Position numbers and translations under genes: made by a program. From the NCBI RefSeq assembly GCF_001971585.1, contig NZ_CP019323.1, forward strand, positions 400,053-424,052: 24,000 nt of DNA, read 5' to 3'. Positions 7,533-22,877 of the stretch are shown in pieces; the first letter of the stretch is position 1, and every line of letters starts with the position of its first letter. The DNA is from Companilactobacillus allii. Lineage in GTDB: Bacteria; Bacillota; Bacilli; Lactobacillales; Lactobacillaceae. The notes under the pieces are model-generated. The model made no database searches and was not told the DNA's origin. It was given only the letters and a program-made list of their open reading frames with translations.

Positions 7533-8744
7533 CTAATTTTGAGTTTTTATATTATTGGATAATTTATCAATTTCTTTATATTCCAATTTCGAATAATTAA
7601 TACCTGCTACAGCTGAAAAAATGAACAATACTGCAAAGATAACTAAACCGGCTTCGAAAGTGAAACCAGGCTCTAAATTGTTAAATAATGACGAAATTCC
7701 TTTAGCAAAGTAAGGCGAAATTAATGTACCAACATTTGCACAAGTCATAACTACAGACGTTGAAAAAGCAACTTGACTCGCAGATGTCATTCTATTGATA
7801 TTAGCAATCATTGATGACATAAAGACTGATACAGAAATACCTAACAAAATAACTCCAATTGCACTTACAAATAAAGAATGCGAAATACTTAATAGTAAAA
7901 ATGATACTGTTGAAAATCCTAATCCGAATGTACTTGTGTATTTAAACCAATGCTTTTGAATATACATAAACAAGAATCCACCCGCAACCATTGCAAAGGC
8001 CATTAATCCAAGCAAGGTACTTGCATCAGACGCCGTTCCATAGTTTCTTGAAACAACTAACAAAGCAAACTTAATTGAAATGAAGGCAAATGTTGCATTG
8101 AAAAGGAAAGCAAATGTAGCTAATAACCAAATTTTTCCATCAACTTTTTTACTGCTCTTACTTTGACCACTATCAGTTACTGTTTCTGAAACCATTCCAA
8201 TTGTCTTTGGTACATAAATACCAACTAAAAGAATAATTGGTAGAACAATTAAATAGACCCAATATGACATTTGCCAACCACCATTCAATAAAACACCAGC
8301 TGCAAAAGTCATGATAAACATTCCTAATCCTTGACAAACACTTGATAATCCAAGCATTTTTTGTTGATCACGTCCCTTATATAATTGAATAATTAAAGAT
8401 TGTGAGAAAGACATCAGTAGACCAGTACCCAACCCTAGGACAACTCTTGACACAAGAATCAATGAGAAATTCATTGTAATTGCTGGAACAATTCCACCGA
8501 TAAATATCAAAACCAACCCAGACATAATAGTTCTTTTGATGCCGATAAAATCTGCCACAATATTACTAATGGGTGTAAAAATAATAATTCCCAATGACGG
8601 AATTGTCATCAATAACTCAATAGTTGTAGGACTAATATTCGAAAAGCTCTTCATCATTAATGGTATGGTAGCAGCCGTTGCACCTGTACTAACCGTAAAG
8701 ACAGACAATATCAAAATTGCAAAACGTGTCATTATTTTTTTCAT
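7533..8744 (-). CDS. MFS-type permease (12 TM)
   Basis: 403-aa highly hydrophobic ORF with about 12 predicted helices split by a central hydrophilic loop (SETVTDSGQSKSSKKVDGK). It starts 2 nt after the GH78 stop. Confidence 0.8.
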   Translation of the reverse strand: MKKIMTRFAILILSVFTVSTGATAATIPLMMKSFSNISPTTIELLMTIPSLGIIIFTPISNIVADFIGIKRTIMSGLVLIFIGGIVPAITMNFSLILVSRVVLGLGTGLLMSFSQSLIIQLYKGRDQQKMLGLSSVCQGLGMFIMTFAAGVLLNGGWQMSYWVYLIVLPIILLVGIYVPKTIGMVSETVTDSGQSKSSKKVDGKIWLLATFAFLFNATFAFISIKFALLVVSRNYGTASDASTLLGLMAFAMVAGGFLFMYIQKHWFKYTSTFGLGFSTVSFLLLSISHSLFVSAIGVILLGISVSVFMSSMIANINRMTSASQVAFSTSVVMTCANVGTLISPYFAKGISSLFNNLEPGFTFEAGLVIFAVLFIFSAVAGINYSKLEYKEIDKLSNNIKTQN

Positions 8745-8746
8745 AA

Positions 8747-11548
8747 TTACTTATCCTTTTTTATTTGTTCAATTTTATAATCCATGAACATCTGATTAAT
8801 TCGGTCAATCTGTGTTTGAGTTAATGGTGAAAAACCAATGCCTTTCATTTCTTGACTCAACTGCAAAATCGAATAATCTTTGAAATGTTCCATATTGCCA
8901 GGTAAATTGAGAAAACCCCAGAATGGAACCAGTTTATTTAACTTATTCGTAATATCTTTATTTCCAATGAACTTAGCCAATGCTGTATGGATGTCAAAGT
9001 TGTTCACCAACGGAGTTGTGGTTTGATAACTAATTTCATGGTGGCCATTTGTTAAAATATCTCCGTTCTCATGCTGCACCCCATCGGCTAGCCATGTTTT
9101 GGTCTTGGGTAATTCAACCACGGCAGACTGATTATAAGGTAAGTCCAGTATTACTTTGACTACACTACCTGAACTAGATATCTTCCAAGCCACTCTGACT
9201 TGTCCAGTAGTTAATTGTGTATAGCCTTCCATAGAACTAAACTTCGGACTAATTTCTGGTTTGATGACCAGTTGGTTGCCTTGTTTAATTCCTAATAAAT
9301 ATTCATAAGCCCACTGCATCACGGCACCAGTCGAATAATGATTTAATGAATTCATCCCATTATCATTAATTTTTCCATCTGGGTTAACCGAATCCCAACG
9401 TTCCCAAATAGTTGTAGCACCTAATTTGACCTGATAAAGCCAGCTAGGGTAATCCTCATTTAAAAACAATTGTACGGCTAGTTCATTTTGATTATTTTGT
9501 GATAATGCTGGTAGTAATGCCGGAGTTCCAACAAAACCAGTTGTTAAATGATTTCGATCTTTCTCAATTCTTTCTACCAATTTATCTGCTAATTTTCTTT
9601 GATCACCATGTGGGTATAGTCGTAGATTTAAACATATGGATAAAGCAGTTTGAGTATCTGTAATTAAACGACCACTTCCGGTAAAGAACTCAGTAATAAA
9701 GGATTCTTTTATCTTTTCTGATAGTAATTGATAATATTCATGTTCTCGTTTGGCATTTAAAACTTCAGCACTGTCAGCAACTATTTTGACCGATTGATAA
9801 TAATAAGCACTGGCAATTAATTCATCTGGAGTTTTGCCTTTCAAATGCATAATATCTTCAGTATCTAAAGCCAACCAATCTCCTAGTTGATCTGCATCTA
9901 ACCATAGAAATTCATTACGTGTTTGCTTAGCATAGTCATGAACCCAATCGACCCATGACATCATTGCTCCAAAATTCTGAAGTAAAACCGATTTGTCCTT
10001 GGTCCTGAGATAACTTATCCATGGAATAATAGTTGCAACATCACTCCAAACGGCTTTTCCACCATCGTCACCGTCAACAGCTGGTACGTAAAGTGGAACT
10101 TTTCCATTGTTGATGCTCTGCTCAACCGCTATATCATAAGAATATTTACGATTAAATTGGTAAGTATCCATGTTGTAACTAGCCGTTTTAGCAAAAATTG
10201 CTGCATCTCCGGTCCAACCTAATCGTTCATCACGTTGTGAACAGTCTGTCGGAACATCCATAAAATTACTCCGTTGCCCCCATTGAACATTACTGAATAA
10301 TTGATTAACTAACTTATTATCTGATTTGATATTGCCAATTGATTCCATATCTGAATACAAGGCTCTGGCTTGAAAATTATCTACGTCAAAATCATTAGGA
10401 AAACCAATTAGTTTGACATATCTAAATCCAAAATAACTAAAATGTGGCCTTACTGGATGTACTTGTCCATCACTGACATAAGTAAAGGTGGCTCGAGCAG
10501 ATCTTAAATTACCTCGATATAATTCACCATTTTGAATGATTTCACCATACTCTAATTCAACCTTGGTACCTTTAGGTAGTGTATTTTTGAAAGTAACCCA
10601 ACCAGCCATATTCTGACCAAAATCTAGTACAACTCCATTACTTGGTGTGATGATTTTTTCTTTAACCCTAAATGATTCATGTTCTTTGATCGGTAAACTG
10701 AGGCGATCTTTTAAATGCTTGCTTGGTTGCTCAAAAGTCTTTAATAGTAATTTGTTTGCTAGGACTGTTTGATCAAGATCTTCACCATAATAAATTCCCG
10801 AATGAGTAATCTGCGAAGATTGAGCCTGCCAAGAATCATCCGTGCCAATATTGTGTTCAACTCCAGCATTATCGCTATAATCAATTTCAGCATTCGCCAT
10901 CAAGGCATTACCATATTGGTTTGCCTTGCCACCATGCTCCTTGATACCTAATTTTCCTCGATACCAACCATCACCTAAACTAATCCTTATCGTATGCACC
11001 CCTGGTGATTGAAGGAACTTAGTAATATCATGAGTCGCAATTTGAACGTAATAATTATAATTAGTAAAACCTGGTGCTAAATATTCAGTTCCAATTTTTT
11101 GATCATCAATATAAACTTCATAAACACCTAAACCACTAACATATAGTCTTCCTTGAGAAACTTCCTTAGGTACATTTATTTGTTTAATTAAATTTAGTCC
11201 ATGAATACTGGCATCATCAGTTCCAATCCATTGACTATTGTTAAACCCCGTCATCAATCCTGTTTCAAAAAACGCGCTTTTTGAAATTATTTCTTGGGTA
11301 TCTTTTAATTCAAATTTCACATTATATCTGGTTTTACTTTGTAATTGAAAAACTGGTTTAAAAATTAAATCTTCGGCAATTTGCCATTCTGTTTTAAAAA
11401 CAATTTCATTATCAGTAGTGATTATTAATCTTTTTTTCAAATTGTCGGGATATTTATCTGCATGAATCGTCCCATTAATGAATAGATCATTTAATTCAAA
11501 TCCAATAGGATTGTTCATGTGGTTTATTCTTATTTGTTCAATCTCCAA
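8747..11548 (-). CDS. GH78 alpha-L-rhamnosidase (intracellular)
   Basis: The roughly 933-938 aa ORF has an N-terminus (EIEQIRINHMNNPIGFEL) typical of bacterial GH78 enzymes. Size and internal motifs such as DCSQRDERLGWTGDA and WERWDS also fit. The ORF track starts at the TTG at 11563. I prefer the TTG at 11548, which has GGGGGAA 6 nt upstream. No signal peptide. Confidence 0.88.
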   Translation of the reverse strand: MEIEQIRINHMNNPIGFELNDLFINGTIHADKYPDNLKKRLIITTDNEIVFKTEWQIAEDLIFKPVFQLQSKTRYNVKFELKDTQEIISKSAFFETGLMTGFNNSQWIGTDDASIHGLNLIKQINVPKEVSQGRLYVSGLGVYEVYIDDQKIGTEYLAPGFTNYNYYVQIATHDITKFLQSPGVHTIRISLGDGWYRGKLGIKEHGGKANQYGNALMANAEIDYSDNAGVEHNIGTDDSWQAQSSQITHSGIYYGEDLDQTVLANKLLLKTFEQPSKHLKDRLSLPIKEHESFRVKEKIITPSNGVVLDFGQNMAGWVTFKNTLPKGTKVELEYGEIIQNGELYRGNLRSARATFTYVSDGQVHPVRPHFSYFGFRYVKLIGFPNDFDVDNFQARALYSDMESIGNIKSDNKLVNQLFSNVQWGQRSNFMDVPTDCSQRDERLGWTGDAAIFAKTASYNMDTYQFNRKYSYDIAVEQSINNGKVPLYVPAVDGDDGGKAVWSDVATIIPWISYLRTKDKSVLLQNFGAMMSWVDWVHDYAKQTRNEFLWLDADQLGDWLALDTEDIMHLKGKTPDELIASAYYYQSVKIVADSAEVLNAKREHEYYQLLSEKIKESFITEFFTGSGRLITDTQTALSICLNLRLYPHGDQRKLADKLVERIEKDRNHLTTGFVGTPALLPALSQNNQNELAVQLFLNEDYPSWLYQVKLGATTIWERWDSVNPDGKINDNGMNSLNHYSTGAVMQWAYEYLLGIKQGNQLVIKPEISPKFSSMEGYTQLTTGQVRVAWKISSSGSVVKVILDLPYNQSAVVELPKTKTWLADGVQHENGDILTNGHHEISYQTTTPLVNNFDIHTALAKFIGNKDITNKLNKLVPFWGFLNLPGNMEHFKDYSILQLSQEMKGIGFSPLTQTQIDRINQMFMDYKIEQIKKDK

Positions 11549-11768: not shown

Positions 11769-12998
11769 TTATTCATCTAGATCAGTACCATCAATAATTC
11801 TATGTAAAAAACTTTTGCCATTTTCTGGTGGTTCAATATCAAAGTATTCTGCACCAGTAGCCCCAACATCGGATAATGTTGATCGATCCCCGACGTACTT
11901 ATTATGTGTGCCTTCCTTATAAATCATTAATGGTGTACGTTCTCTTGTATGCAAAGTGGAACCTATCGTTGGATCATCCCCATGATCTGCCATAACAATT
12001 AAAATATCATCACCTGTATATAAGGGTAGGACTTCATTTAGCTTTTTATCAGCTTTTTCAAGCACATCTGCATAACTCAACGGATCTTCAGCATGACCGG
12101 CTAAATCCGTTTCTTGAATATTCATAAACAGTAATCCATTTTTCATATTCTTTGATTGTTCAATAAACTTATCAAACAAATAATTGGTATCAACACCAGG
12201 AAATTTTCTATCCGTATTTACATTAATAATATCGGATGTTTTCCCTATCAAAGATACATCAATATTATTTTCATGCAACATAGTCGGTAATTGTACTTTA
12301 GGGTCAATTCCGTATCCTAGATGTATAACATGATAATCTTTATTATATACACCGGATTCTGGAGCTGACACACCAACATATTTTCCATGTTCTATTTTAC
12401 GTGCCTTTAAAATATTTTTAAGATTTACCCCTCGACCTCCAAAGGCAATAACACGTGAAACTTTAACAACACTTCGAACTGAATCACCTAACCTAGTTAT
12501 CTCATCGAATGACATCTCATCTAAAGCTGCCGTCACGTTATATACTTGACCCGGATCTGCTTCCAAGTTATCACCTATAGTTGCACAATTATTTACTAAT
12601 AATAATTGATATCCCGGATCGCCATATCTCTCAATTTCAAAACCATCTTTTTTCACTTGATTTTCAATGGTATCAATAACCTCATTAAATGGCTGTAATA
12701 ATGGCATCTTAGGTTTAGTCCCCATAATTTCTTGGTGGGCCAAATATGAATCTGCACCATGATGCATCAAATTAGAGGTACCCCAGTTTGCAGTATTAGA
12801 GAATTTTTTATCTCCTCTTTCTTCACCAATAGAATTCATTAATCCCAATTTTACTAGATTGGGGATTTGGATCTGTGGAACTGCCTTAATAATATTTAAG
12901 GCAGTGTTTGAACCAATATCATCTGGACGAACATTAGGAACATCGTCCATTGCACCTACTCCAAAACTATCTAACACAATTATTCCAAATTTACCCAT
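11769..12998 (-). CDS. yhfW: YhfW-like phosphopentomutase-family (alkaline-phosphatase superfamily) metalloenzyme
   Basis: The preferred start is the ATG at 12998, with GGGAG 8 nt upstream and 1 nt after the upstream TGA, giving 409 aa. The track start at 13049 would overlap the previous gene by 50 nt. The DeoB-type core is present as IIVLDSFGVGAMDD, GADSYLAHQEIMG (compare E. coli DeoB GKDTPSGHWEIAG), QETDLAGHAEDP and MADHGDDPT. Confidence 0.85.
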   Translation of the reverse strand: MGKFGIIVLDSFGVGAMDDVPNVRPDDIGSNTALNIIKAVPQIQIPNLVKLGLMNSIGEERGDKKFSNTANWGTSNLMHHGADSYLAHQEIMGTKPKMPLLQPFNEVIDTIENQVKKDGFEIERYGDPGYQLLLVNNCATIGDNLEADPGQVYNVTAALDEMSFDEITRLGDSVRSVVKVSRVIAFGGRGVNLKNILKARKIEHGKYVGVSAPESGVYNKDYHVIHLGYGIDPKVQLPTMLHENNIDVSLIGKTSDIINVNTDRKFPGVDTNYLFDKFIEQSKNMKNGLLFMNIQETDLAGHAEDPLSYADVLEKADKKLNEVLPLYTGDDILIVMADHGDDPTIGSTLHTRERTPLMIYKEGTHNKYVGDRSTLSDVGATGAEYFDIEPPENGKSFLHRIIDGTDLDE

Positions 12999-12999
12999 A

Positions 13000-14166
13000 T
13001 CATTTAACTCCCTTCGGTAATTCTCTACCTTGACTATCATATAAACCAACCAGTCTTGGATTGCTTGTGTGTAGTCCTCTAACTAATGCAATTGTGCTTC
13101 TGGTTACGAACATTTGAGTTCTATATGCCATTACAACTGGTAAACCAGATTTAAATTCTTTATTTAGTTCCAAATAGTAATCAATACTCGAATTATCTAG
13201 TGGAAAAACTTCTGCATGCTCAATCTCATTACCATTCTTTACTATTACATTCTTCAAATGACCTCTTCTGTAATATCCGCCACCAAAAACAAAGCTATGG
13301 TTTTTAAAACTATGTGATATTTCACTTACATAACAATATGCTGGCTTTTCTGGCAATTTTTTTACAGCATGCATAGGTGTGGTCCCAGTAATGGAATGCC
13401 CTGGCTCTCCTTCTGTACCACCCAGTTCCTTAATTAATTTAAGCGATTTAGTAGCGGTTGCTGAGGGTAAACTAACGACAGAACAATTTAGTTCATGCTT
13501 ATTAAAAATATCCTTAGAAGCCTTTATCGTTGTCATATTAGAGGTCTTCTCATACTCACATTTTTTTTCATCAAAAAGAATAGCGGGAAATGTCGTGATA
13601 CCGACAATCTCAAGATTCGATAATTGTTTCAATTTCTCTAACTGATTGTCCAATTGCTTCAAAGTAAAACCACCAACTTGACCAGGATATATATCATCTT
13701 TATCATCTTGGATTTTTAAAATAATTTTTTGAACTTTATTACTGGATCTTGCAGCCTCATTCAAATCAAAGGCATTTTCATACGAGAATATTGTGAAATA
13801 CTTAGTTCCGTAATCAATAATCTTTTTGAGTAACATTTTTGGTACCTGTACTAAATGACCAACATTTCCTAATTTCAAATTATTGTTCATAAATACTTCA
13901 GCTTCTCTATAATCAACAACGACAGCATTTTCTATCCCCGCTGATTCAATTTCTTTTGCTATTATTGGATTTCTGCCTAATTGTTTTGTCATATAAAGCA
14001 ATTCGATTCCATACTTTTTTGCTTCGACAACCATTTTTTTTGTGTTTTCACTTATCATGTCTAGATCTATGACATATGTGTCTGGTAATATTTGACCAGT
14101 TTTATGTAAATCAAAGGCAAAATCAATTAATTCCGGATTTAATTCTTCAAGTTTTTTTAAAAACAT
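13000..14166 (-). CDS. yhfX: YhfX-like putative PLP enzyme of the alanine-racemase-fold (fold type III) family
   Basis: 388 aa (E. coli YhfX is about 387 aa) with a GAGGTGG RBS. The start ATG overlaps the upstream TAA (TAATG). Assignment rests on size, position beside the yhfW-like gene and overall resemblance to the predicted amino-acid racemase family. It is the least motif-supported call in the cluster. Confidence 0.65.
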   Translation of the reverse strand: MFLKKLEELNPELIDFAFDLHKTGQILPDTYVIDLDMISENTKKMVVEAKKYGIELLYMTKQLGRNPIIAKEIESAGIENAVVVDYREAEVFMNNNLKLGNVGHLVQVPKMLLKKIIDYGTKYFTIFSYENAFDLNEAARSSNKVQKIILKIQDDKDDIYPGQVGGFTLKQLDNQLEKLKQLSNLEIVGITTFPAILFDEKKCEYEKTSNMTTIKASKDIFNKHELNCSVVSLPSATATKSLKLIKELGGTEGEPGHSITGTTPMHAVKKLPEKPAYCYVSEISHSFKNHSFVFGGGYYRRGHLKNVIVKNGNEIEHAEVFPLDNSSIDYYLELNKEFKSGLPVVMAYRTQMFVTRSTIALVRGLHTSNPRLVGLYDSQGRELPKGVK

Positions 14167-15263
14167 TATCCCACCACCTCATTAATACTACTTTTAAGAA
14201 TCCGAATTATAGTATCAGCACCACAACGATATGGATTAATTCTTATAGTGGTTTTTAATAGATTGGGATCGTACTCTTTAAATGTTCCTGAAACTCTGTA
14301 GAACATTGGTACAATTTCATATTTAGATTCAGCACCCACTGGATTAGGTGCTGCACCAAGAGAACTTGTATATTTCAATACCTCTTCAGCTATTGGTTTT
14401 TTAAATTCTACTAATAAAACCTTAGACTGGGCATTGGCAATATATGCATAAGAAATTTCTGATATTTCTTTATTATTAAGTCGTTGAACTAACTCATTAA
14501 CAACATTTGCTTGATTTGCTAATGCAACCGGAGCATATGTCAATCCACGTAATACATCCAGAGCCTCATGTCCCTGTACCTGTGAACCACCAGAATAATT
14601 CTCTTTTTTAAGTAATTCTATTTTCTCCTTATCACCCACAATACATCCGATACCTTCAGGGCCTAATAGCTTAAAGGTTGAAAAGCAGCTTAGATTAGCA
14701 CCTAATTCGACACCAATTTTTTTTACTTTCATTACTGCATAATTGTCATCTGTAATTATTGGAATATTAGGATACTTATTTTTAAAAAACGAAATAACTT
14801 TTTCTATTGAATATGAGTCTTCTGGCTGTTGTCTTGTATATTGAATTAAAATCGCCGAAATATTATTGGGTAATATTTGATTCTCAATATCGTTATAATC
14901 TATTTCAATGGTTTTTATTCCCATACTCTCTATTGATACTTTTGTAGTTGGATATACTGGCGCTCTATGAACAAGTACTGTATCTCCAGGATGTAGTACT
15001 GAATGAAGTGCCAATCTAATTGCCGCTGTTCCCGATCCTCTAACTAGCATTGCCGCATCTGTTCCAAAAAAACTAGCTAAAATTTCTTCCACTTTCTTTG
15101 TATATCTTGGTTGGTTTAACCCAGGAACAACACCTAGATCACCTCGGCTTAGCATTTCATTTCCCATGAAATAGCGTGTCATAATATCAACTAATTTAAA
15201 TTGTTTTTTTAACGCTTCCTCTATGGATATGCTCTCTAGTGGGTATGTTTTAAATTTAGGCAT
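14166..15263 (-). CDS. yhfS: YhfS-like PLP-dependent enzyme, SelA/DgaE-like (fold type I)
   Basis: The preferred start is the ATG at 15263 (MPKFKTYPLESI, paralleling the E. coli YhfS N-terminus). The track start at 15275 is four codons upstream. The PLP-lysine box NLSCFSTFKLLGPEGIGCIVGDKE closely parallels SelA [24 protein letters not shown]. It overlaps the php stop by a few nt. Confidence 0.8.
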   Translation of the reverse strand: MPKFKTYPLESISIEEALKKQFKLVDIMTRYFMGNEMLSRGDLGVVPGLNQPRYTKKVEEILASFFGTDAAMLVRGSGTAAIRLALHSVLHPGDTVLVHRAPVYPTTKVSIESMGIKTIEIDYNDIENQILPNNISAILIQYTRQQPEDSYSIEKVISFFKNKYPNIPIITDDNYAVMKVKKIGVELGANLSCFSTFKLLGPEGIGCIVGDKEKIELLKKENYSGGSQVQGHEALDVLRGLTYAPVALANQANVVNELVQRLNNKEISEISYAYIANAQSKVLLVEFKKPIAEEVLKYTSSLGAAPNPVGAESKYEIVPMFYRVSGTFKEYDPNLLKTTIRINPYRCGADTIIRILKSSINEVVG

Positions 15264-16140
15264 TAAAATCACCATAGATTCTTTGTGGATTATCTATTAA
15301 CATCTTATTAATAAATTCTTCTGAAACATTGTTCTTTTTTAATTCGGGAATAAACTTATCTAATAAATATGAATAACCATTACCACCATTTTCTTTGAGA
15401 TGTGATTTTCTTGTAATATCCATAGACATAACGACTTGGTCCGTATACCCTGCTTTTTCAATATCTTTAAGCATCTTGGTTCTCACTGTATCTGATAAAT
15501 AGTTATTTTTACCAATTGTGTCAAATTCGACATTTATTCCAGCTTTTAGCATATCGATAACATAGTCAGAGTTTGCGGATAGATCAACATGTCCAATGAC
15601 AATTTTACTTAAATCAGCTTGTTTTCTAGCAAAATAATTAACTTGTTCATGTCCTAACGTCCCAATAGATGTATGCGTACTAATTGGACATCCAGTTTCC
15701 TTCTGAGCAATAACAGCCGCGTTGAATACCTTTTCTTCACCTATGGTCCATTTGTTCTGAGTCGTGGCAATTTCACCAATAACACCGGCTTTTACATTTG
15801 TACCCTTAATTCCTTTCTGAATATCCTCTATCATACCTTCTGCCAATTGATTTACTGACAATCTAAAAACTTCAACTGGCAGAAAAGCATCTTGGTAAAA
15901 CCCTGTAGATTGAACAATATTTATTTTGGATTTCTCAGCCACAGTTTGCGCGTATGGAATATTTCTTCCCATACCTCTATTGCTCATATCAATAACATTC
16001 CTTACACCTTTTACATAGAGATCCTTAAATTCTTGAATAACCAATTCTTGGGAATCAAGATGACAGTCCTCATTGTGTTTAACTTCTGACAAATCAATTG
16101 GAATATGCTCATGTGAATAAACCATACCAGGTACTAACAT
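15256..16140 (-). CDS. php: Phosphotriesterase homology protein (amidohydrolase superfamily, Php/YhfV)
   Basis: 294 aa with an AAGAGGA RBS. The protein is collinear with E. coli Php throughout. All metal ligands are present: YSHEHIPIDLS (HxH), VIGEIAT (Glu replacing the carbamyl-Lys), ISTHTS, IGHVDLS and VMSMDITRKSHL. Confidence 0.93.
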   Translation of the reverse strand: MLVPGMVYSHEHIPIDLSEVKHNEDCHLDSQELVIQEFKDLYVKGVRNVIDMSNRGMGRNIPYAQTVAEKSKINIVQSTGFYQDAFLPVEVFRLSVNQLAEGMIEDIQKGIKGTNVKAGVIGEIATTQNKWTIGEEKVFNAAVIAQKETGCPISTHTSIGTLGHEQVNYFARKQADLSKIVIGHVDLSANSDYVIDMLKAGINVEFDTIGKNNYLSDTVRTKMLKDIEKAGYTDQVVMSMDITRKSHLKENGGNGYSYLLDKFIPELKKNNVSEEFINKMLIDNPQRIYGDFNA

Positions 16141-16165
16141 TTATAAAATCCTCTTTCTGTTCAAA

Positions 16166-17458
16166 TTAAAATAACATTATTAATCTCAATATATTCAATA
16201 AAACTCCCAAAACAATTGCCGCAATTGGCCCAACTGCCATGTCTACTAAAGGTTTCTTGGCTTTCTTATTTAAAAGCCAAAAACCTATTACCCAAAAATA
16301 TCCCAAATTGGGTGCCATCTTATTACATGCCAATGCAGCACCAATAAGTAATGCTATCGCTATTGTGTCTTGTAACGATGTTCTGATATGTTCTCCCATA
16401 TCTCTTAATCCAGGGAATTTATCCAATCCTTTAGCAGTAGCTGAAAGAGCTTGAACCTCAATCCACATCCAAACAAATCCAGCTAAAAACGCAAGAATTG
16501 GTTGTCCTTTTAATAGCAAACCAATAACAAAGATAATGGTTGTTCCAGCCATACCATAAACGCCAGTTACAATAGCAGTTGAAAATACCAACGGAATAAA
16601 TCCAATAGCACGTGCAAATGTCGCAATAGCCGCTTCCATAACTTGGTTTTTAACCAATAATTGTTGTGGTAATACATCAACAGCGATTATCAACATACTT
16701 GATGAAGCAGTAATCAAACCTCCCATAATGGACAACCAGATCCAATTACTCTTAATTCGACCCACACGTTTTGAAAATACGTTCACCAGTCCAGCGTTTG
16801 AATTACCATCACCCTTGATTTGTGCAGCAAAGTAAATCATCGCTATCATTGCAACTAATAAAGACATGCCAATTGCATTCAATGTAACCGTCATACCATC
16901 AACTTTGAATGTACCGAATTTTGTGGCTAAAAGATAAGCTAAAAATGTTAGGCCAAAAGTAATCATTCCCTTTTTAGGCCCATGTTGACTTGCAACCGAA
17001 AGTGCTGGAAACGCACAAAAAGCTAAAAGGATCGGACCACCTAATAATGAAAGTGCTGGCAAGAAATTAAATGGCAACATCTTAAATAATGAAACGATTG
17101 TGGAAAGTCCAAATAACAATCCAATACCATAAATGGCACCAACTACACCTGCCATTGCTGTACCCCATTTAGTATCCGGGGTCCATGTACCAATAATATC
17201 TGCTGCAAGCAAAATACTATGTGCAACCAGGATTGTTGATCCAATTGAAACTGGTATACCAAAGCCTATAATCAGTCCAAAACTAACTGCAAAACTAGTA
17301 GCTGCTAGTTCCTTCCTGGTTATTTTTCCTTCCAGATATTCGGGCATAATCGGTCTTAATCCATCGTTAAAAACAGCAATACCACGGTTAGCCAAAATAG
17401 ACCCAACACCTCCAACCGCGGCAATTAATACATAGTTAATCAACGTAGTAACGTTCAT
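16166..17458 (-). CDS. yhfT: YhfT-like polytopic inner-membrane protein (putative transporter)
   Basis: 430 aa (E. coli YhfT is 434 aa) with at least 10 hydrophobic helices and an AAGGATGG RBS. It lies directly downstream of the yhfU-like gene, as in E. coli. Confidence 0.8.
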   Translation of the reverse strand: MNVTTLINYVLIAAVGGVGSILANRGIAVFNDGLRPIMPEYLEGKITRKELAATSFAVSFGLIIGFGIPVSIGSTILVAHSILLAADIIGTWTPDTKWGTAMAGVVGAIYGIGLLFGLSTIVSLFKMLPFNFLPALSLLGGPILLAFCAFPALSVASQHGPKKGMITFGLTFLAYLLATKFGTFKVDGMTVTLNAIGMSLLVAMIAMIYFAAQIKGDGNSNAGLVNVFSKRVGRIKSNWIWLSIMGGLITASSSMLIIAVDVLPQQLLVKNQVMEAAIATFARAIGFIPLVFSTAIVTGVYGMAGTTIIFVIGLLLKGQPILAFLAGFVWMWIEVQALSATAKGLDKFPGLRDMGEHIRTSLQDTIAIALLIGAALACNKMAPNLGYFWVIGFWLLNKKAKKPLVDMAVGPIAAIVLGVLLNILRLIMLF

Positions 17459-17483
17459 TTTTATACCATCCTTTTTTTATTTT

Positions 17484-17507
17484 CAATATACTGTATAATG
17501 TATATTG
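17484..17507. promoter_or_regulatory. Palindromic operator-like element CAATATA-N10-TATATTG (copy 1, yhfU-yhfT gap)
   Basis: This lies in the only sizeable intergenic gap inside the operon (72 bp). Here the palindrome extends to 11-bp arms, TTTCAATATAC (17481-17491) and GTATATTGAAA (17500-17510). An identical 7-N10-7 core recurs at 19193-19216. Confidence 0.45.
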
Positions 17508-17530
17508 AAAGATAATTAAATATAAAAAAA

Positions 17531-17896
17531 TTATTTCACTAGATATTTCACTAAAATGGGTAACACTGTGTCTTTTGTATTTATAGTGAATCCAAATGCA
17601 ACTTTACCTTTACCGTTAATTTCTTCTGCAATTTCTTCCTCAGATAATACCTTGGATGGAGATGCGACTGTAACAGTATGAGTTGATCCTAGTAATGCTG
17701 TTGCCATTGCAAGAGCTCCACCTGCACCAGTTTCACAAGCACCAATATAATAATCTGCTTCTCCATTTTTAATTGCCATTGCTGCATCCAAATCATTTTT
17801 GATAAAAATATCAACCTCCTTATCACCAATCAATTTTACTAGTGTTTTTTTTATATCATCTTTCCCCATTTGCCCACCAATAACAATTCTAATCAT
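17531..17896 (-). CDS. yhfU: YhfU-like small soluble protein (DUF2620)
   Basis: 121 aa (E. coli YhfU is about 117 aa) with a strong AAGGAGGAA RBS. The start overlaps the yhfY-like stop by 8 nt (ATGATTAG). It carries the conserved Cys/Gly-rich loop DYYIGACETGAGGALAMA. Confidence 0.8.
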   Translation of the reverse strand: MIRIVIGGQMGKDDIKKTLVKLIGDKEVDIFIKNDLDAAMAIKNGEADYYIGACETGAGGALAMATALLGSTHTVTVASPSKVLSEEEIAEEINGKGKVAFGFTINTKDTVLPILVKYLVK

Positions 17897-18248
17897 TTTG
17901 ATTCCTCCTTAATATATTTAAAACATGTAATAGTATATATTGTGTTTCATCTTCATTAAACTTTACTGGTGCTTTAAATTTTAAATCATTCCAGACTGAT
18001 ATGGCAATTTTATACTCTGGTTTACCACTTATTTGTTTCCACATTTCATCTGGCATTCTATCAACAAGTTCATTATCTAGTACCCTACCAATTGCGACCG
18101 ATAAATGGATCAATAACATTTCATTATCATTACTGTAATAATTTGTTTCAAAATAATCATCAACATCAACTAAAAATTCAAAGGAATCTGAATCTAATTT
18201 TCCCATTTCCTTTAAAAGATTTAACTTTTTCTCTGTAGTTTCTTCCAT
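17889..18248 (-). CDS. yhfY: YhfY-like stand-alone PRD-domain protein
   Basis: The preferred start is the ATG at 18248, 8 nt after GGAGG, giving 119 aa (E. coli YhfY is 120 aa). The track start is a GTG at 18257. It has two PRD-type helices with conserved His residues (LLIHLSVAIGR and YILLHVLNILRR). There is no RNA-binding or DNA-binding domain. Confidence 0.78.
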   Translation of the reverse strand: MEETTEKKLNLLKEMGKLDSDSFEFLVDVDDYFETNYYSNDNEMLLIHLSVAIGRVLDNELVDRMPDEMWKQISGKPEYKIAISVWNDLKFKAPVKFNEDETQYILLHVLNILRRNQND

Positions 18249-18261
18249 ATATATCACCTCC

Positions 18262-19176
18262 TCAATATTCAGGTAGAATCTCCCCAGATATCACCTCTTT
18301 TTGAACAAGAGTGATTTGATTATCATCCGCGTATCTTTGTACAATTTCTTTAATAAACGAATTGTTCTTTTTACAAAGTAATGCTGCACGAGACGACTTA
18401 TTTACCAAATCGCTATCAATTGAATCGTAAGATACTGGGTAATTCTTTTCCTCCACCTCGTCTCTATTCCAGATAGCAGCGTCAATTTCCCCATTCTCAA
18501 TTCTTTGTACAATTTGATTGTATGGCGTTTCAATTAATTGGACATTATGATTTTTTACAATTTCTTGTGTCAAAATTTTATAATCTATCGAATGGGAATC
18601 CACACCAATACTCATTCCGTCATAAATAAAGTTATTTTTACCTTTTTTATGTACAATTACATGTTCTGAGACATAAGTTTTTTGTGGAAATAAGGATATT
18701 AGATCCACATCGTTATTCTTCAATAAATAATCTGCAGTTAATCCAGAAGTAACTATAAAATCATATCGATTACTCTTTAAACCATTTAATCTATTTATTG
18801 ATCCGTTAACATAGGCTAGATTAAGATTAAGCTTTTTATCTTCAAAGGCCCTATAAAATCCTGTACTGAGTCCTTCATAATACTTGGTATAGGGTAACGG
18901 CATAGCACAAACAATATTTCTATCGTCCAAATAATTAAGTAATTTGTCTTGATTTTGATCAACCAAATACGTACCCATATGCCCCTTGGATAATGTCTTA
19001 ATTGCCCCATCATTTTTTAAAGTTTCCAGAGCACTTTGCATGGTTCCTCGTGAGGTATTTGTTTCCAGACATAATTCATCTACAGTAGGTACTTTATCCC
19101 CAATTCCTAATGTAAAAAATTTCTTTGCTAAATAAATCAAAGCAATACCTTTTTTTTGATATTGTGTTTCCTTCAT
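18262..19176 (-). CDS. yhfZ: YhfZ-like transcriptional regulator (N-terminal GntR-like wHTH plus C-terminal ligand-binding domain)
   Basis: 304 aa (E. coli YhfZ is 301 aa). It has an N-terminal HTH (VPTVDELCLETNTSRGTMQSALETLKNDGAIKTLSKGHMGTYLV). It is the first gene of the cluster, as in E. coli. Confidence 0.78.
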   Translation of the reverse strand: MKETQYQKKGIALIYLAKKFFTLGIGDKVPTVDELCLETNTSRGTMQSALETLKNDGAIKTLSKGHMGTYLVDQNQDKLLNYLDDRNIVCAMPLPYTKYYEGLSTGFYRAFEDKKLNLNLAYVNGSINRLNGLKSNRYDFIVTSGLTADYLLKNNDVDLISLFPQKTYVSEHVIVHKKGKNNFIYDGMSIGVDSHSIDYKILTQEIVKNHNVQLIETPYNQIVQRIENGEIDAAIWNRDEVEEKNYPVSYDSIDSDLVNKSSRAALLCKKNNSFIKEIVQRYADDNQITLVQKEVISGEILPEY

Positions 19177-19192
19177 TATTGCATCTCTTTTC

Positions 19193-19216
19193 CAATATAC
19201 AGTTTTTAATATATTG
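19193..19216. promoter_or_regulatory. Palindromic operator-like element CAATATA-N10-TATATTG (copy 2, yhfZ leader)
   Basis: Same 7-N10-7 core as 17484-17507. It lies between the candidate promoter (-10 at 19231-19236) and the yhfZ-like ATG at 19176, roughly +8 to +31 of the predicted transcript. Confidence 0.45.
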
Positions 19217-19230
19217 CTTTCAACGACATA

Positions 19231-19259
19231 AGTGTATGCCCTTACATCACTGTTGTCAA
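19231..19259 (-). promoter_or_regulatory. Putative sigma-A promoter of the yhf-like operon
   Basis: On the minus strand, a perfect -35 TTGACA (19259-19254), an exact 17-nt spacer, then a -10 TACACT (19236-19231). This leaves a leader of about 48 nt. Confidence 0.45.
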
Positions 19260-19435
19260 TATTCTTTTTTTTAATATAATTTTTTATAACACAAAAAGAA
19301 TATCTATCCTTTCAACATTAATGAATTCATTACAATCCATTTACAAAAAAGAGGTTAGATATTCCTTAATAATTGTACTGTAAAATTGTTATTATTCATA
19401 GATGTAAATCACCTAGAAATAATTCGGTATTACTT

Positions 19436-20239
19436 TTATCTTTTCAATATATTCTCTGACTGTACCCACTTACTGATATTTCCCTTATGTTTTTTCACAT
19501 ATTTAGAATAAATAATATCCAACTGAATGAGCACAGGAATCTGAGGTGAAATATTTCCCAAAGCTTCGTCTGCTGAAAAGTTCGCTGCATAGACTGTTTC
19601 CTCACAATAATCAACAATTGGAGAATCCTCATTCGAAGTAATCATTAAAAACTTAGCTCCTTTTGTTCTTCCCACTTTAACAGCTTCCAACATATCCTTG
19701 TCCTGACCGCGAAGGGATGCAATTAGTACCAAATCTCCTTTTTGTAAAGAACTAGCCGATAAAGATATAGAGTGTTGGTCACTATAAACCTGTATCACTT
19801 TACCAAATCTTGCAAATTTGAATTCAAAATCATTACCAGCAAATGAGTTAAATCCTAATCCCCAAAACATGATAATCCTTGTAGCATCGATAAGATCACA
19901 GAAGTTCTCTACTGCTTGACTACGATATGCGGCATCACTTCTCGTGGCCAGAGCATGATAACTAGCGGTAACTGGGGTGGATATATTACTAGCATCCTCA
20001 GTTTGATCATTTAAAGAAAGACTATATAAAAAGATCAGTTCTTTGAAGTTATTTAATCCCAATTTCTTACAAAATCTTGTAATTGATGGCGGTGAAACCG
20101 AAATTTTTTTTGCTAATTCACTAATACTTAATACTTCTTGTTTACTGATAAAATAATCAGCAATATTTTGTTCTACCGATGTAAAACTATTTCGATGGGA
20201 TTCAATTAATAAGAATAAGTCGTCAACCTTGTTTTCCAT
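19436..20239 (-). CDS. MurR/RpiR-family transcriptional regulator (HTH_6 plus SIS domain)
   Basis: 267 aa. It has an N-terminal HTH (ISELAKKISVSPPSITRFCKKLGLNNFKEL) and a C-terminal SIS-type sugar-phosphate-binding region (IIMFWGLGFNSFAGNDF ... LVLIASLRGQDKD). It starts 16 nt after the GH38 stop. Confidence 0.88.
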   Translation of the reverse strand: MENKVDDLFLLIESHRNSFTSVEQNIADYFISKQEVLSISELAKKISVSPPSITRFCKKLGLNNFKELIFLYSLSLNDQTEDASNISTPVTASYHALATRSDAAYRSQAVENFCDLIDATRIIMFWGLGFNSFAGNDFEFKFARFGKVIQVYSDQHSISLSASSLQKGDLVLIASLRGQDKDMLEAVKVGRTKGAKFLMITSNEDSPIVDYCEETVYAANFSADEALGNISPQIPVLIQLDIIYSKYVKKHKGNISKWVQSENILKR

Positions 20240-20255
20240 ACAGTTACCTTCAATC

Positions 20256-22877
20256 TTATTTATTAATTTTTATCGTTTTGACCTCACCAGGCTTAAAATC
20301 ACCACATGAAATATTTTTCATTTTGCCCATGCTTCTTTTTAGTCTTCCAACAAAGTCAGTTTCACTAATAAAATAGAAGTCATTTAATAATACCAAATCA
20401 TTTCCTCCACATGAATGCTTACTTGGATTATAAACCCTTAAGAGCCATCCTGACTCGTCTTGACTCTCAGTTAAGCTACTAAAAATAAGATTCTTATTTT
20501 TAATTTCTAGAAACGGATTACTTTCAATCTGCTTGTCGAGTGGCTGCATTACAAAATACTTCAGAGTATTAGTAAATAAATTTAGATTTTGTTCCTGATA
20601 AAACGGCTGACTTATCGCATATATTTGGAAATTCTTCATCATTTCAGCAGGCATGAATCTATCATTTAATTGCAACGCAAATTTAAAATGAAGTTTCTCT
20701 ATTAATTGACTATCAGGAGTAGGTATATAGGTAAATTGATTACCTGATGCGACACCTGGTCTCCTGATCAAATCTGGTCTACCTAAAAATCCAACAGAAC
20801 GGAATAACGTAAGTGCAATCTGATTATAATTTTTACCGATAATTTGATACTCTTTATTACCTTTAGCCATAACAGTCCAGCTAGAGTCATCATTATGAAC
20901 ATTTACGTAATGGAGCATAGGGAAAATTGCTGTCGGCTCTTCCTTCCAGCCGAGTTCTTTCCAATCCCTTAAATGAGGATCTACTACTGAACGTCTAATA
21001 TATCCAAACCCAGTATCTGCATATGAATATTGTGATTCAATATCAGAATTAAAAATTGCACGCATGCGATGATCTTTAACGTCATTCTCAATATCTAGAT
21101 GAAACTGAATTTGATTATCTCTATCTAGAGTTAATTCTAGTTCATAATTAACGATTCCAGAATTGGTTTTGTTGGCTCTTTCGTCTAAGTCTTTAGGTAA
21201 ATTCCATTGACCAGTAAGTATCATTTTTTGACCAACTTTACCGTTTTGAACTTTAACTGTGGCATCATTGTAATTCAAATAAATTATATTATCTTTATAC
21301 GCTGGTGAGTAGTCGTAAGTGTCACCTTCATCTCCGCCATCTTCAAAGATCAAAAGTTTTTCAAATTCTTTATTATTTTTTAAATCCAGTAATGTTAAAT
21401 CGCCGTTTGAATATTTAATTCTAAGATCACCATTTGAAATTGAATTAGATTCTGTATGGCCTATTACCTCAGCATTACCCATTTTGGGAACTAATTTTAA
21501 CTTTTTCCACTGCAATGATGGCAACGTTATTTTAGCCTGACAATGAAAAATATAATAGTAATCTGTCTCTTTATACTGAGATTCATCTCTTTTTATCTGG
21601 CCATTATATTTCTTCTCAATATCTAAGATATCCACCAATATCTTTTTATCATTATCATATAAATCAAAGTCTTTATTCTTTAATGATACGTTGAATTTTA
21701 CTATTTTTTCAGTGTTAAAAGGTAGTGTATTAAAAAAGGTTAAATCATTGGGCTCCTTATTCTTTTGAGATTCAGAAATTTTTCTAGTTAAATAATCAAC
21801 TGCAGAGTACGATAGTTGGTCTGCCTCTTGTAATCGATCCAAAATGATTTTATTAGTTTTATCACTATTACATCCCCCAGCACTATCGTGGGCATGATTT
21901 CTTACAATTAATTTCCATATTTTATTTAATAATGATTTTTTATATTCTATTCCCACTCTATCAGCCATGACCATTAAAGGTTCCAGTTGGTAGATCATTC
22001 TACGTTCTACTTTGTCATTTAAATACTTTTGATCATATCGTGAAGAATATATAGATCGATGTATTTTGGATACTGAACTATTAATGAACTCACCAGAAAC
22101 ATTATCCAAAGCATTTCTTTTCATATTCATTTTAATGAATAAGGCAGGATAATTACTTTCAAAAAGTTGGATATCTTTATCTTTCAAAGCGTCATTATAG
22201 AATTTGATTCTATCTTTTAAATTATAATCAACATATCTTTGATCTCCACCCACTGGCAGGGCAATATCATCAATCGTTGTACCACTAATAACTGTTTTCA
22301 TCGTGGAGTCTACATTGTCGTCGTCAATTAAACCAACACCAACAAAATATCCATCTTTGATATTCAACGTAGTTACATTTGATCCATCTTCAGAATTCCA
22401 AACAAATTCACGATTCCTCGTTTTATCTTCTGACAAACCCCTCCAAAATAATGCATTAGTAATACCCATACCATTATAGATTTTAGGCATATCAGCAGCT
22501 TGACCAAAAGAATCAGGTAAATATCCTATTCTTTGACTTCCACCTAATTTATCAGCCATCTCCATCCCTAAGGACAAATTTCTTACAATTGATTCACCGG
22601 TAACAATCATCTCATCTGTCTGCGTATACCATGGCCCAATAAATAAACGGCCGTTTCGTACCCACTTAGATAATTCTTCTTTTTTTTCAGGATAGGCATC
22701 CAAGTAGTCATCCAAAATACTCATTTGACCATCCAACAGATAATAATCAACAATCTGATCTTCCAGTGCTTTAAAGACTTCATCCATATGATATACAAAC
22801 TGAATTATTGCCTCATTCCTAGTAAAATACCATTCAAAATCCCAATGTGTATGTTGAATAACATGAATATTTTTCAT
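20256..22877 (-). CDS. GH38 alpha-mannosidase (MngB-like, intracellular)
   Basis: 873 aa (E. coli MngB is 877 aa) with a GAGGAG RBS. It has the N-terminal GH38 metal-site motif IHVIQHTHWDFEWYFT and the downstream YLPDSFGQ motif. There is no signal peptide. Fructose-family PTS genes lie immediately upstream. Confidence 0.9.
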   Translation of the reverse strand: MKNIHVIQHTHWDFEWYFTRNEAIIQFVYHMDEVFKALEDQIVDYYLLDGQMSILDDYLDAYPEKKEELSKWVRNGRLFIGPWYTQTDEMIVTGESIVRNLSLGMEMADKLGGSQRIGYLPDSFGQAADMPKIYNGMGITNALFWRGLSEDKTRNREFVWNSEDGSNVTTLNIKDGYFVGVGLIDDDNVDSTMKTVISGTTIDDIALPVGGDQRYVDYNLKDRIKFYNDALKDKDIQLFESNYPALFIKMNMKRNALDNVSGEFINSSVSKIHRSIYSSRYDQKYLNDKVERRMIYQLEPLMVMADRVGIEYKKSLLNKIWKLIVRNHAHDSAGGCNSDKTNKIILDRLQEADQLSYSAVDYLTRKISESQKNKEPNDLTFFNTLPFNTEKIVKFNVSLKNKDFDLYDNDKKILVDILDIEKKYNGQIKRDESQYKETDYYYIFHCQAKITLPSLQWKKLKLVPKMGNAEVIGHTESNSISNGDLRIKYSNGDLTLLDLKNNKEFEKLLIFEDGGDEGDTYDYSPAYKDNIIYLNYNDATVKVQNGKVGQKMILTGQWNLPKDLDERANKTNSGIVNYELELTLDRDNQIQFHLDIENDVKDHRMRAIFNSDIESQYSYADTGFGYIRRSVVDPHLRDWKELGWKEEPTAIFPMLHYVNVHNDDSSWTVMAKGNKEYQIIGKNYNQIALTLFRSVGFLGRPDLIRRPGVASGNQFTYIPTPDSQLIEKLHFKFALQLNDRFMPAEMMKNFQIYAISQPFYQEQNLNLFTNTLKYFVMQPLDKQIESNPFLEIKNKNLIFSSLTESQDESGWLLRVYNPSKHSCGGNDLVLLNDFYFISETDFVGRLKRSMGKMKNISCGDFKPGEVKTIKINK

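Follow-up and report, generated by a model that had tools for sequence, protein, structure and literature searches.

In a 24,000-nt stretch of the Companilactobacillus allii genome (contig NZ_CP019323.1, positions 400,053 to 424,052; hereafter the window), an operon of yhf genes carries the same palindrome in two noncoding gaps, one in the leader of yhfZ (site O1) and the other between yhfU and yhfT (site O2). The two copies are unique in the genome, the positions of the box are conserved across orthologous loci, the box co-occurs with yhfZ, and its letters are constrained in the manner of a DNA site. We estimate a probability of about 0.8 that O1 and O2 are operators of YhfZ, which would repress its own promoter at O1, act as a roadblock to transcription at O2, and leave both sites upon ligand binding. 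An earlier note, made from the letters of the window, had proposed a site for a dimeric helix-turn-helix (HTH) regulator with YhfZ as the likeliest candidate; the conservation of the box and its co-occurrence with yhfZ support this proposal at the level of sequence comparison.

The pattern CAATATA-N10-TATATTG was matched at O1 and O2 with no mismatches, in agreement with the earlier note, and the exact pattern was found nowhere else in the whole genome (2,534,178 bp on two contigs). The motif is thus not common, which was the first matter that the note had wanted settled. When one mismatch was allowed, two additional matches appeared in the genome, compared with one for a reversed control pattern. 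The third-best match in the window (positions 22045 to 22068) has two mismatches and lies within a GH38 coding region, which bears out the claim that the window holds no third full copy. The two sites are 1709 bp apart. O1 (CAATATATTAAAAACTGTATATTG in operon sense) starts 14 nt past the -10 hexamer of the yhfZ promoter candidate and ends 16 nt short of the yhfZ ATG, and O2 ends 25 nt short of the yhfT ATG. The arms of O2 grow to a perfect 11 bp, as had been noted, with TTTCAATATAC at 17481 to 17491 and GTATATTGAAA at 17500 to 17510 around an 8-nt center. An interspersed repeat of the repetitive extragenic palindromic (REP) or miniature inverted-repeat transposable element (MITE) type was ruled out, as both exact genome copies are in this operon.

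A scan of genome contigs with a YhfZ alignment gave 80 loci, in which the genes were mapped by tblastn. The box was searched for in 81 orthologous yhf loci (670 kb) from Lactobacillaceae, Clostridia, Erysipelotrichaceae, Paenibacillus, Thermoanaerobacter, and others, with 18 specified positions scored and shuffled sequences as controls. The cross-locus consensus is CAATRTACA-N6-TGTAYATTG, a 9-N6-9 unit in place of the 7-N10-7 unit first described. The arm centers had been placed about two helical turns apart; the 7-nt arms are in fact separated by 17 bp, or about 1.6 turns, and the TACA/TGTA cores by 10 bp, or one turn. Matches at 16 or more of the 18 positions numbered 99 against a shuffle mean of 0.2, and those at 17 or more numbered 53 against a shuffle mean of 0. 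Among 123 matches of at least 15/18, only one fell within a recognized yhf gene, and the others were located 5' of yhfZ or of the first structural gene (yhfY, yhfU, or yhfT). The distance from the box to the next gene was mostly a few tens of nucleotides, with about 0.4 kb to yhfU where yhfY was undetected and a few boxes 0.8 to 3.4 kb upstream.

The first structural gene behind the box differs among lineages. It is yhfY in most Clostridia, yhfT in Lactobacillaceae and some Erysipelotrichaceae, and yhfU in Carnobacteriaceae and Enterococcus, where the boxes open one long unit that includes yhfZ. In Lactobacillaceae, a related palindrome is present at both positions, the yhfZ leader and the yhfU-yhfT gap, with letters that change in step at the two: AATATAC...GTATATT in Companilactobacillus and Lacticaseibacillus, and mostly AATATTC...GAATATT in Lactobacillus. 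The box before yhfT scores at least 14/18 in nine of 10 distinct Lactobacillaceae loci. The box is also present at two loci where no yhfY was detected (L033 and L042). The position of the box is conserved from Firmicutes to E. coli, the second matter that the earlier note had raised. Extra boxes were observed off the standard positions (L072:7940; L076:2791 and 2951; L077:2743 and 2903; L024:539 and 629; L020:1746, 1785, and 1852; L067:48, 112, and 209), including one 5' of yhfX, pairs 1 to 3.4 kb 5' of yhfZ, and triple tandem arrays 5' of yhfZ. These may mark further regulon members or cooperative arrays.

Against this cross-phylum consensus, which derives mainly from other taxa, O2 ranked first in the C. 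allii genome (17 of 18 positions) and O1 joint second (16 of 18), and the only further site at 16/18 lies inside a 758-codon open frame. The genome matches of at least 15/18 other than O1 and O2 were set aside, six in long open frames as chance and two intergenic ones for wrong spacing or a weak half-site. An intergenic palindrome at genome positions 2243609 to 2243632, CAGTATTCAC-N4-GTGAATATTG, scores 15/18 with another internal spacing (TTCAC-N4-GTGAA) and is probably the site of another factor.

We also examined the box within the genus. Among 41 genomes, all eight that carry yhfZ have a single exact copy of AATATAC-N8-GTATATT, always about 1.7 kb from the yhfZ start, and of the 33 without yhfZ, one has the pattern, with a G-rich spacer; across 40 relatives, the count is zero or one copy per genome and follows the presence of yhfZ. 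Since these genomes are related, the link is a co-occurrence rather than a statistical proof. In an alignment of the eight yhfZ-carrying species, the conserved blocks around the yhfZ promoter are ATTGAC, TTACACT, a short stretch just 5' of the box, and the box itself, and the DNA further upstream and the flanking intergenic DNA are unconserved. In the yhfU-yhfT gap of the same species, the O2 box is essentially the sole strongly conserved block. Ahead of it is a short stretch whose T positions are conserved (GTTT..T.TCTTT), and the rest of the gap 5' of the box is unconserved between species whose YhfZ proteins share 72 to 92% identity.

YhfZ is the putative binder. From Firmicutes to Proteobacteria, the box is found ahead of the regulator's own gene, an arrangement typical of autoregulation. 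The protein matched the NCBIfam equivalog NF041241 at 348.5 bits (cutoff, 260; residues 4 to 304), and the yhf gene names given in the earlier note were upheld by Pfam and NCBIfam. Its N-terminal winged HTH domain is HTH_41 (residues 25 to 71; 48.6 bits against a cutoff of 25), followed by YhfZ_C (209.5 bits against a cutoff of 35), a periplasmic-binding-protein-like sensor domain. The latter matched PDB entry 2ozz, the solved C-terminal domain of E. coli/Shigella YhfZ, which has a type II binding-protein fold. Close homologues of YhfZ carry Companilactobacillus species names. NCBI names the family a "GntR family" despite a Pfam GntR (PF00392) score of 23.6 bits, below the cutoff of 27, and GntR/FadR-family domains in the PDB aligned weakly with the YhfZ HTH (E = 0.1 to 0.3).

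The proposed arrangement resembles that of local repressors of the GntR superfamily (FadR, HutC/NagR, and AraR types), in which an N-terminal winged HTH precedes an effector domain and a palindromic operator is located at or just past the -10 of the repressor's own promoter and before catabolic genes. Across the 81 loci, the two-fold 9-N6-9 dyad is located both at the promoter of the regulator gene and at its targets, as with GntR-type operators. The S-R-G-T-x-Q motif of YhfZ aligns, though weakly, with S-R-x-x-V-R, where the recognition helix of GntR begins. TGTAC/GTACA is also found in AraR boxes. However, the half-site cores of the YhfZ box are 6 nt apart and do not abut as in AraR and HutC boxes, the effector domain is YhfZ_C rather than an FCD, UTRA, or LacI-like domain, and a separate PRD protein is co-encoded in addition to the subcutoff Pfam score.

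A corresponding layout was observed in Proteobacteria. In E. coli K-12 (L088), TTCA-N6-TGAA boxes are located upstream of yhfZ (9349 to 9372 and 9373 to 9396) and in the yhfY-yhfX gap, where the box at 8007 to 8030 (AAATATTCA-N6-TGAATATTT) is perfect, for three boxes in the cluster, and the layout recurs at three other proteobacterial loci. The E. coli cluster (yhfZ-yhfY-yhfX-yhfW-php-yhfU-yhfT-yhfS) shares with the C. allii operon the gene set, the two-position layout of the box, and its AT-rich flanks (AAATAT...ATATTT). The two differ in the core, which is TTCA/TGAA rather than TACA/TGTA, in the recognition helix, which has Val rather than Arg, and in gene order, so that the second box precedes yhfX instead of yhfT. 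The 9373-9396 box of E. coli reads ATATCTTCA-N6-TGAAGATAA and lies side by side with the box that borders on the yhfZ ATG; the form ATCTTCA-N6-TGAAGAT is likewise present upstream of yhfZ in Limnobaculum (L108) and L107. Across the loci, Arg in the S-R-G-T-x-Q helix motif accompanies TACA/TGTA cores, and Gln or Leu (Lactobacillus) or Val (Proteobacteria) at the same position accompanies TTCA/TGAA cores. This correlation is suggestive only. A further independent lineage with an Arg-to-Gln change (P0053, L105) was uninformative: no box was found in its 3.7-kb contig, where yhfZ begins 14 nt after yhfW.

The yhfZ promoter candidate TTGACA-17-TACACT, read from 19259 to 19231 on the minus strand, matches the consensus at 10 of 12 positions, and both hexamers are conserved in the eight species of the genus, so the promoter named in the earlier note is retained. 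At 34 of the 47 first sites with recognizable promoters at the orthologous loci, the -10 ends 0 to 14 nt 5' of the box, as it does at several second sites whose promoters match at 11 to 12 of 12 positions. A box just past the -10 is in the position of a repressor site. O1 follows this promoter-box pattern and O2 does not. Neither a consensus scan nor a separate scan found a promoter of at least 9/12 preceding or overlapping O2; the best candidate, TTTATA-18-TACATT, reaches 8/12, and the candidate -10 hexamers within O2 (TATACA, TATTCA, and TATTTA) all lack the final T. The earlier suggestion of autoregulation, with the transporter and enzyme genes under a control of their own, is supported in that a box is present both at the yhfZ promoter and before yhfT, but no internal promoter of this strength was found at O2. 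An intrinsic terminator was ruled out, for the stem is AT rich and is followed by AAAATAAAAAAAGG in operon sense; no terminator-like sites were found in positions 17300 to 19500, neither after yhfU nor after O1 or O2.

In the proposed mechanism, YhfZ would bind as a dimer with a recognition helix at each of the two cores (TACA and TGTA), which are 10 bp apart and would lie on the same face of the DNA. O1 would occupy roughly +8 to +31 of the yhfZ promoter, a position from which bound YhfZ would prevent promoter escape or early elongation and thereby repress the yhfZ-yhfY-yhfU transcript that encodes it. O2 would provide a second block ahead of the transporter and enzyme genes yhfT-php-yhfS-yhfX-yhfW. 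Because no credible promoter precedes O2, a roadblock within one long transcript is favored, and we consider the odds about even that O2 blocks elongation in a single yhfZ-to-yhfW transcript, possibly strengthened by looping to O1. The pathway genes would as a result be tightly shut off, with some regulator still produced at a basal level; that O2 matches the consensus better than O1 is in keeping with a stricter control over the pathway genes than over the regulator. Binding of a substrate or pathway intermediate to YhfZ_C would free both sites, perhaps with input from YhfY. Known operators of this kind, such as lac O2 and sites of CcpA and CodY, are likewise located far downstream in a transcribed unit, with a second operator at the promoter, and O2 would similarly halt RNA polymerase during elongation or form a loop. 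O2 differs in its location in an intergenic gap rather than in a gene, and here both roadblock and loop are read from the arrangement of the sites.

The strongest alternative, although an unlikely one in our judgment, retains YhfZ as the binder and makes O2 the operator of a separate internal promoter, which would give yhfT-php-yhfS-yhfX-yhfW a transcription unit of its own. Second boxes in other lineages (L046, L064, L081, L033, and L042) lie 0 to 11 nt downstream of promoters that match at 11 to 12 of 12 positions, and the boxes that precede yhfU in Carnobacteriaceae and Enterococcus stand at the head of a unit. In the operon tables that PMC4448311 reproduces, php-yhfSTUWX and yhfZY of E. 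coli are separate entries, and the GTTT..T.TCTTT block 5' of O2 is shared within the genus. The best promoter candidate at O2 itself, however, stays at 8/12, with -10 candidates that lack the final T. The rest of the gap 5' of the box is otherwise unconserved, and no terminator follows yhfU.

A far less probable alternative is that the palindromes act as RNA hairpins, either as a processing or 5'-stabilizing stem-loop at O2 that uncouples yhfT-yhfW mRNA from yhfZYU or as targets of a PRD-type antiterminator. Both sites are in transcribed DNA near ribosome-binding sites, a PRD protein is encoded next door, the spacer is A rich in the sense strand only, and the O2 hairpin is more stable than its composition would predict (-10.9 kcal/mol; z = -5.5). 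An RNA stem is expected to favor G.U pairs and to covary, and independent protein half-sites are expected to vary independently. In 106 unique sites, arm positions 2 to 3 and 6 to 8 and their mirrors are nearly invariant in letters and not just in pairing, and these letters are kept at 35 to 40% regulator identity. The variable pair at positions 5 and 20 (R/Y) gave 59 Watson-Crick combinations against about 58 expected under independence, with 20 mismatches of the G.U type and 26 of the A.C type; over all arm positions of the sense strand, the respective numbers were 43 and 50. Since these sites showed neither covariation between the arms nor a preference for G.U over A.C, the constraint acts on DNA half-sites and not on an RNA stem. 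In addition, the O1 hairpin is weak (z of about -2), only close relatives share the extension of the O2 stem past the box, and Rfam gave no family within E <= 1. The ribonucleic antiterminator (RAT) hairpins of BglG-, LicT-, and SacY-type PRD antiterminators are also palindromes in transcribed leaders near a PRD-encoding gene, but the present sites lack the overlapping terminator (17300 to 19500), the co-antiterminator (CAT) domain in YhfY, and the covariation, and they are not members of this class. The hairpin reading, which the earlier note had offered as an alternative, is therefore disfavored at 17484 to 17507.

The least probable of the alternatives is that the box simply accompanies the operon and is bound by another protein, be it a global regulator or the product of a gene elsewhere: the N-terminal domain of YhfZ is only weakly GntR-like by sequence, but the box tracks yhfZ from Firmicutes to Proteobacteria, phyla that share few global regulators, bears the usual signature of autoregulation upstream of yhfZ, is present without a detected yhfY (L033 and L042), changes its core along with the YhfZ recognition helix, and has no additional good intergenic copies in the genome. 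Nor does the box fit what we take to be the consensus sequences of cre, CodY, AraR, and the ARG box.

Several observations weigh against YhfZ operators with a roadblock at O2. The strong promoters before the second box in several lineages make a weak promoter at O2 (best, 8/12) possible. The link between recognition helix and core comes from only two independent lineages and has one exception, in which a change from Arg to Asn keeps TACA. The GntR score of YhfZ is below the Pfam cutoff, and both sites are transcribed and so may have an added role at the RNA level. Finally, the 6-nt spacer (box positions 10 to 15) reads AAAWAW in operon sense, with A at 77 to 93% at positions 10 to 12 and 71% at position 14 (106 unique sites, L007 to L087). 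This bias is one-sided, in the sense strand only, and a purely two-fold protein site leaves it unexplained. A -10 element hidden in the A-rich spacer was considered as its cause and rejected, as the clear promoters have their -10 upstream of the box; no -35 signal was found at the distance needed for a spacer -10 in the loci scanned for promoters.

Features of the yhf operon in the window (positions are those of the 24,000-nt stretch)
Feature	Position	Strand	Description
-35 hexamer TTGACA, yhfZ promoter candidate	19254-19259	minus	ATTGAC invariant in 8 genus species
-10 hexamer TACACT, yhfZ promoter candidate	19231-19236	minus	17-nt spacer; TTACACT invariant in 8 genus species
O1, putative YhfZ box in yhfZ leader	19193-19216	minus	16/18 consensus positions; reads CAATATATT-AAAAAC-TGTATATTG in operon sense
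yhfZ	18262-19176	minus	HTH_41 and YhfZ_C; NCBIfam equivalog NF041241
yhfY	17889-18257	minus	PRD only (34.7 bits)
yhfU	17531-17896	minus	DUF2620; last gene upstream of O2
yhfU-yhfT gap	17459-17530		72 bp, as in the earlier note; houses the O2 palindrome
O2, putative YhfZ box in yhfU-yhfT gap	17484-17507	minus	17/18 consensus positions; reads CAATATACA-TTATAC-AGTATATTG in operon sense
yhfT	16166-17458	minus	YhfT family; downstream of O2
php/PTE	15256-16140	minus	PTE family; downstream of O2
yhfS	14166-15275	minus	YhfS-like_C; downstream of O2
yhfX	13000-14166	minus	YhfX-like_C; downstream of O2
yhfW-like	11769-13049	minus	Metalloenzyme superfamily; downstream of O2

The part of the operon 3' of O2, from yhfT to the yhfW-like gene, extends over 11769 to 17458 of the minus strand. 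The distribution of the whole operon (11769 to 19259) is patchy: it was found in eight of 41 genomes of the genus and in three of 201 genomes sampled across the family, the window's own genome counted, which suggests gain and loss or horizontal transfer. The yhfZ frame stays open for about 45 codons 5' of the ATG (19177 to 19311), through O1 and the promoter, which gives a 349-codon frame compared with the 304-amino-acid open reading frame. This extension contains no ATG, GTG, or TTG start and is probably due to chance in AT-rich DNA. On the plus strand, antisense to the operon, the O2 spacer (17492 to 17499) contains a perfect TATAAT, which is unconserved in other Lactobacillaceae, where the spacers differ, and is probably incidental.

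A Pfam and NCBIfam domain search of YhfY gave the PRD only, with no DNA- or RNA-binding domain and no CAT domain. One of its histidines, that of LLIHLS in the C. allii protein, is shared by all alignment rows that could be read, among them E. coli. We infer that this conserved His is consistent with input from the phosphotransferase system (PTS), and YhfY may modulate YhfZ in a PTS-dependent manner. Firmicutes also retain a second His (ILLHVL), which is replaced by Asn in the proteobacterial sequences. A bolder version, which we regard as doubtful, is that YhfZ and the PRD-only YhfY form a split PTS-controlled factor. Phosphorylation of the YhfY His by HPr or an EIIB-like partner, conceivably YhfU, would then set the occupancy of the box, O2 would be a true roadblock that fixes the ratio of regulator to pathway proteins, and the switch from Arg to Gln or Val would respecify TACA to TTCA.

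Searches of a paper library on the yhf genes, the Pfam families, and php found no published YhfZ operator or YhfZ-binding study and no paper that gives the yhf cluster a substrate or a regulator site; the matches were a list of bacterial interspersed mosaic element (BIME) attenuators, a sigma-54 prediction table, and riboswitch-screen tables, none of them relevant. The type of element is ordinary, the dyad operator of a local repressor. What is added here is the Firmicutes box with its TACA core, the observation that in Lactobacillaceae the second box has moved to the yhfU-yhfT gap, a test that spoke against a function as RNA, and the correlation between recognition helix and core.

The yhf cluster, yhfZ to yhfS in E. 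coli, is widespread, and a defined putative operator offers a target for an inducer-reading reporter, chromatin immunoprecipitation (ChIP), or an electrophoretic mobility shift assay (EMSA). The box also lets regulon members be predicted in any genome that carries yhfZ, and the pairing of a recognition-helix Arg with TACA and of Gln, Leu, or Val with TTCA is a testable specificity rule. If YhfZ and YhfY do form a split factor, its combination of winged HTH, binding-protein fold, and stand-alone PRD would represent a hitherto undescribed architecture for a regulator.

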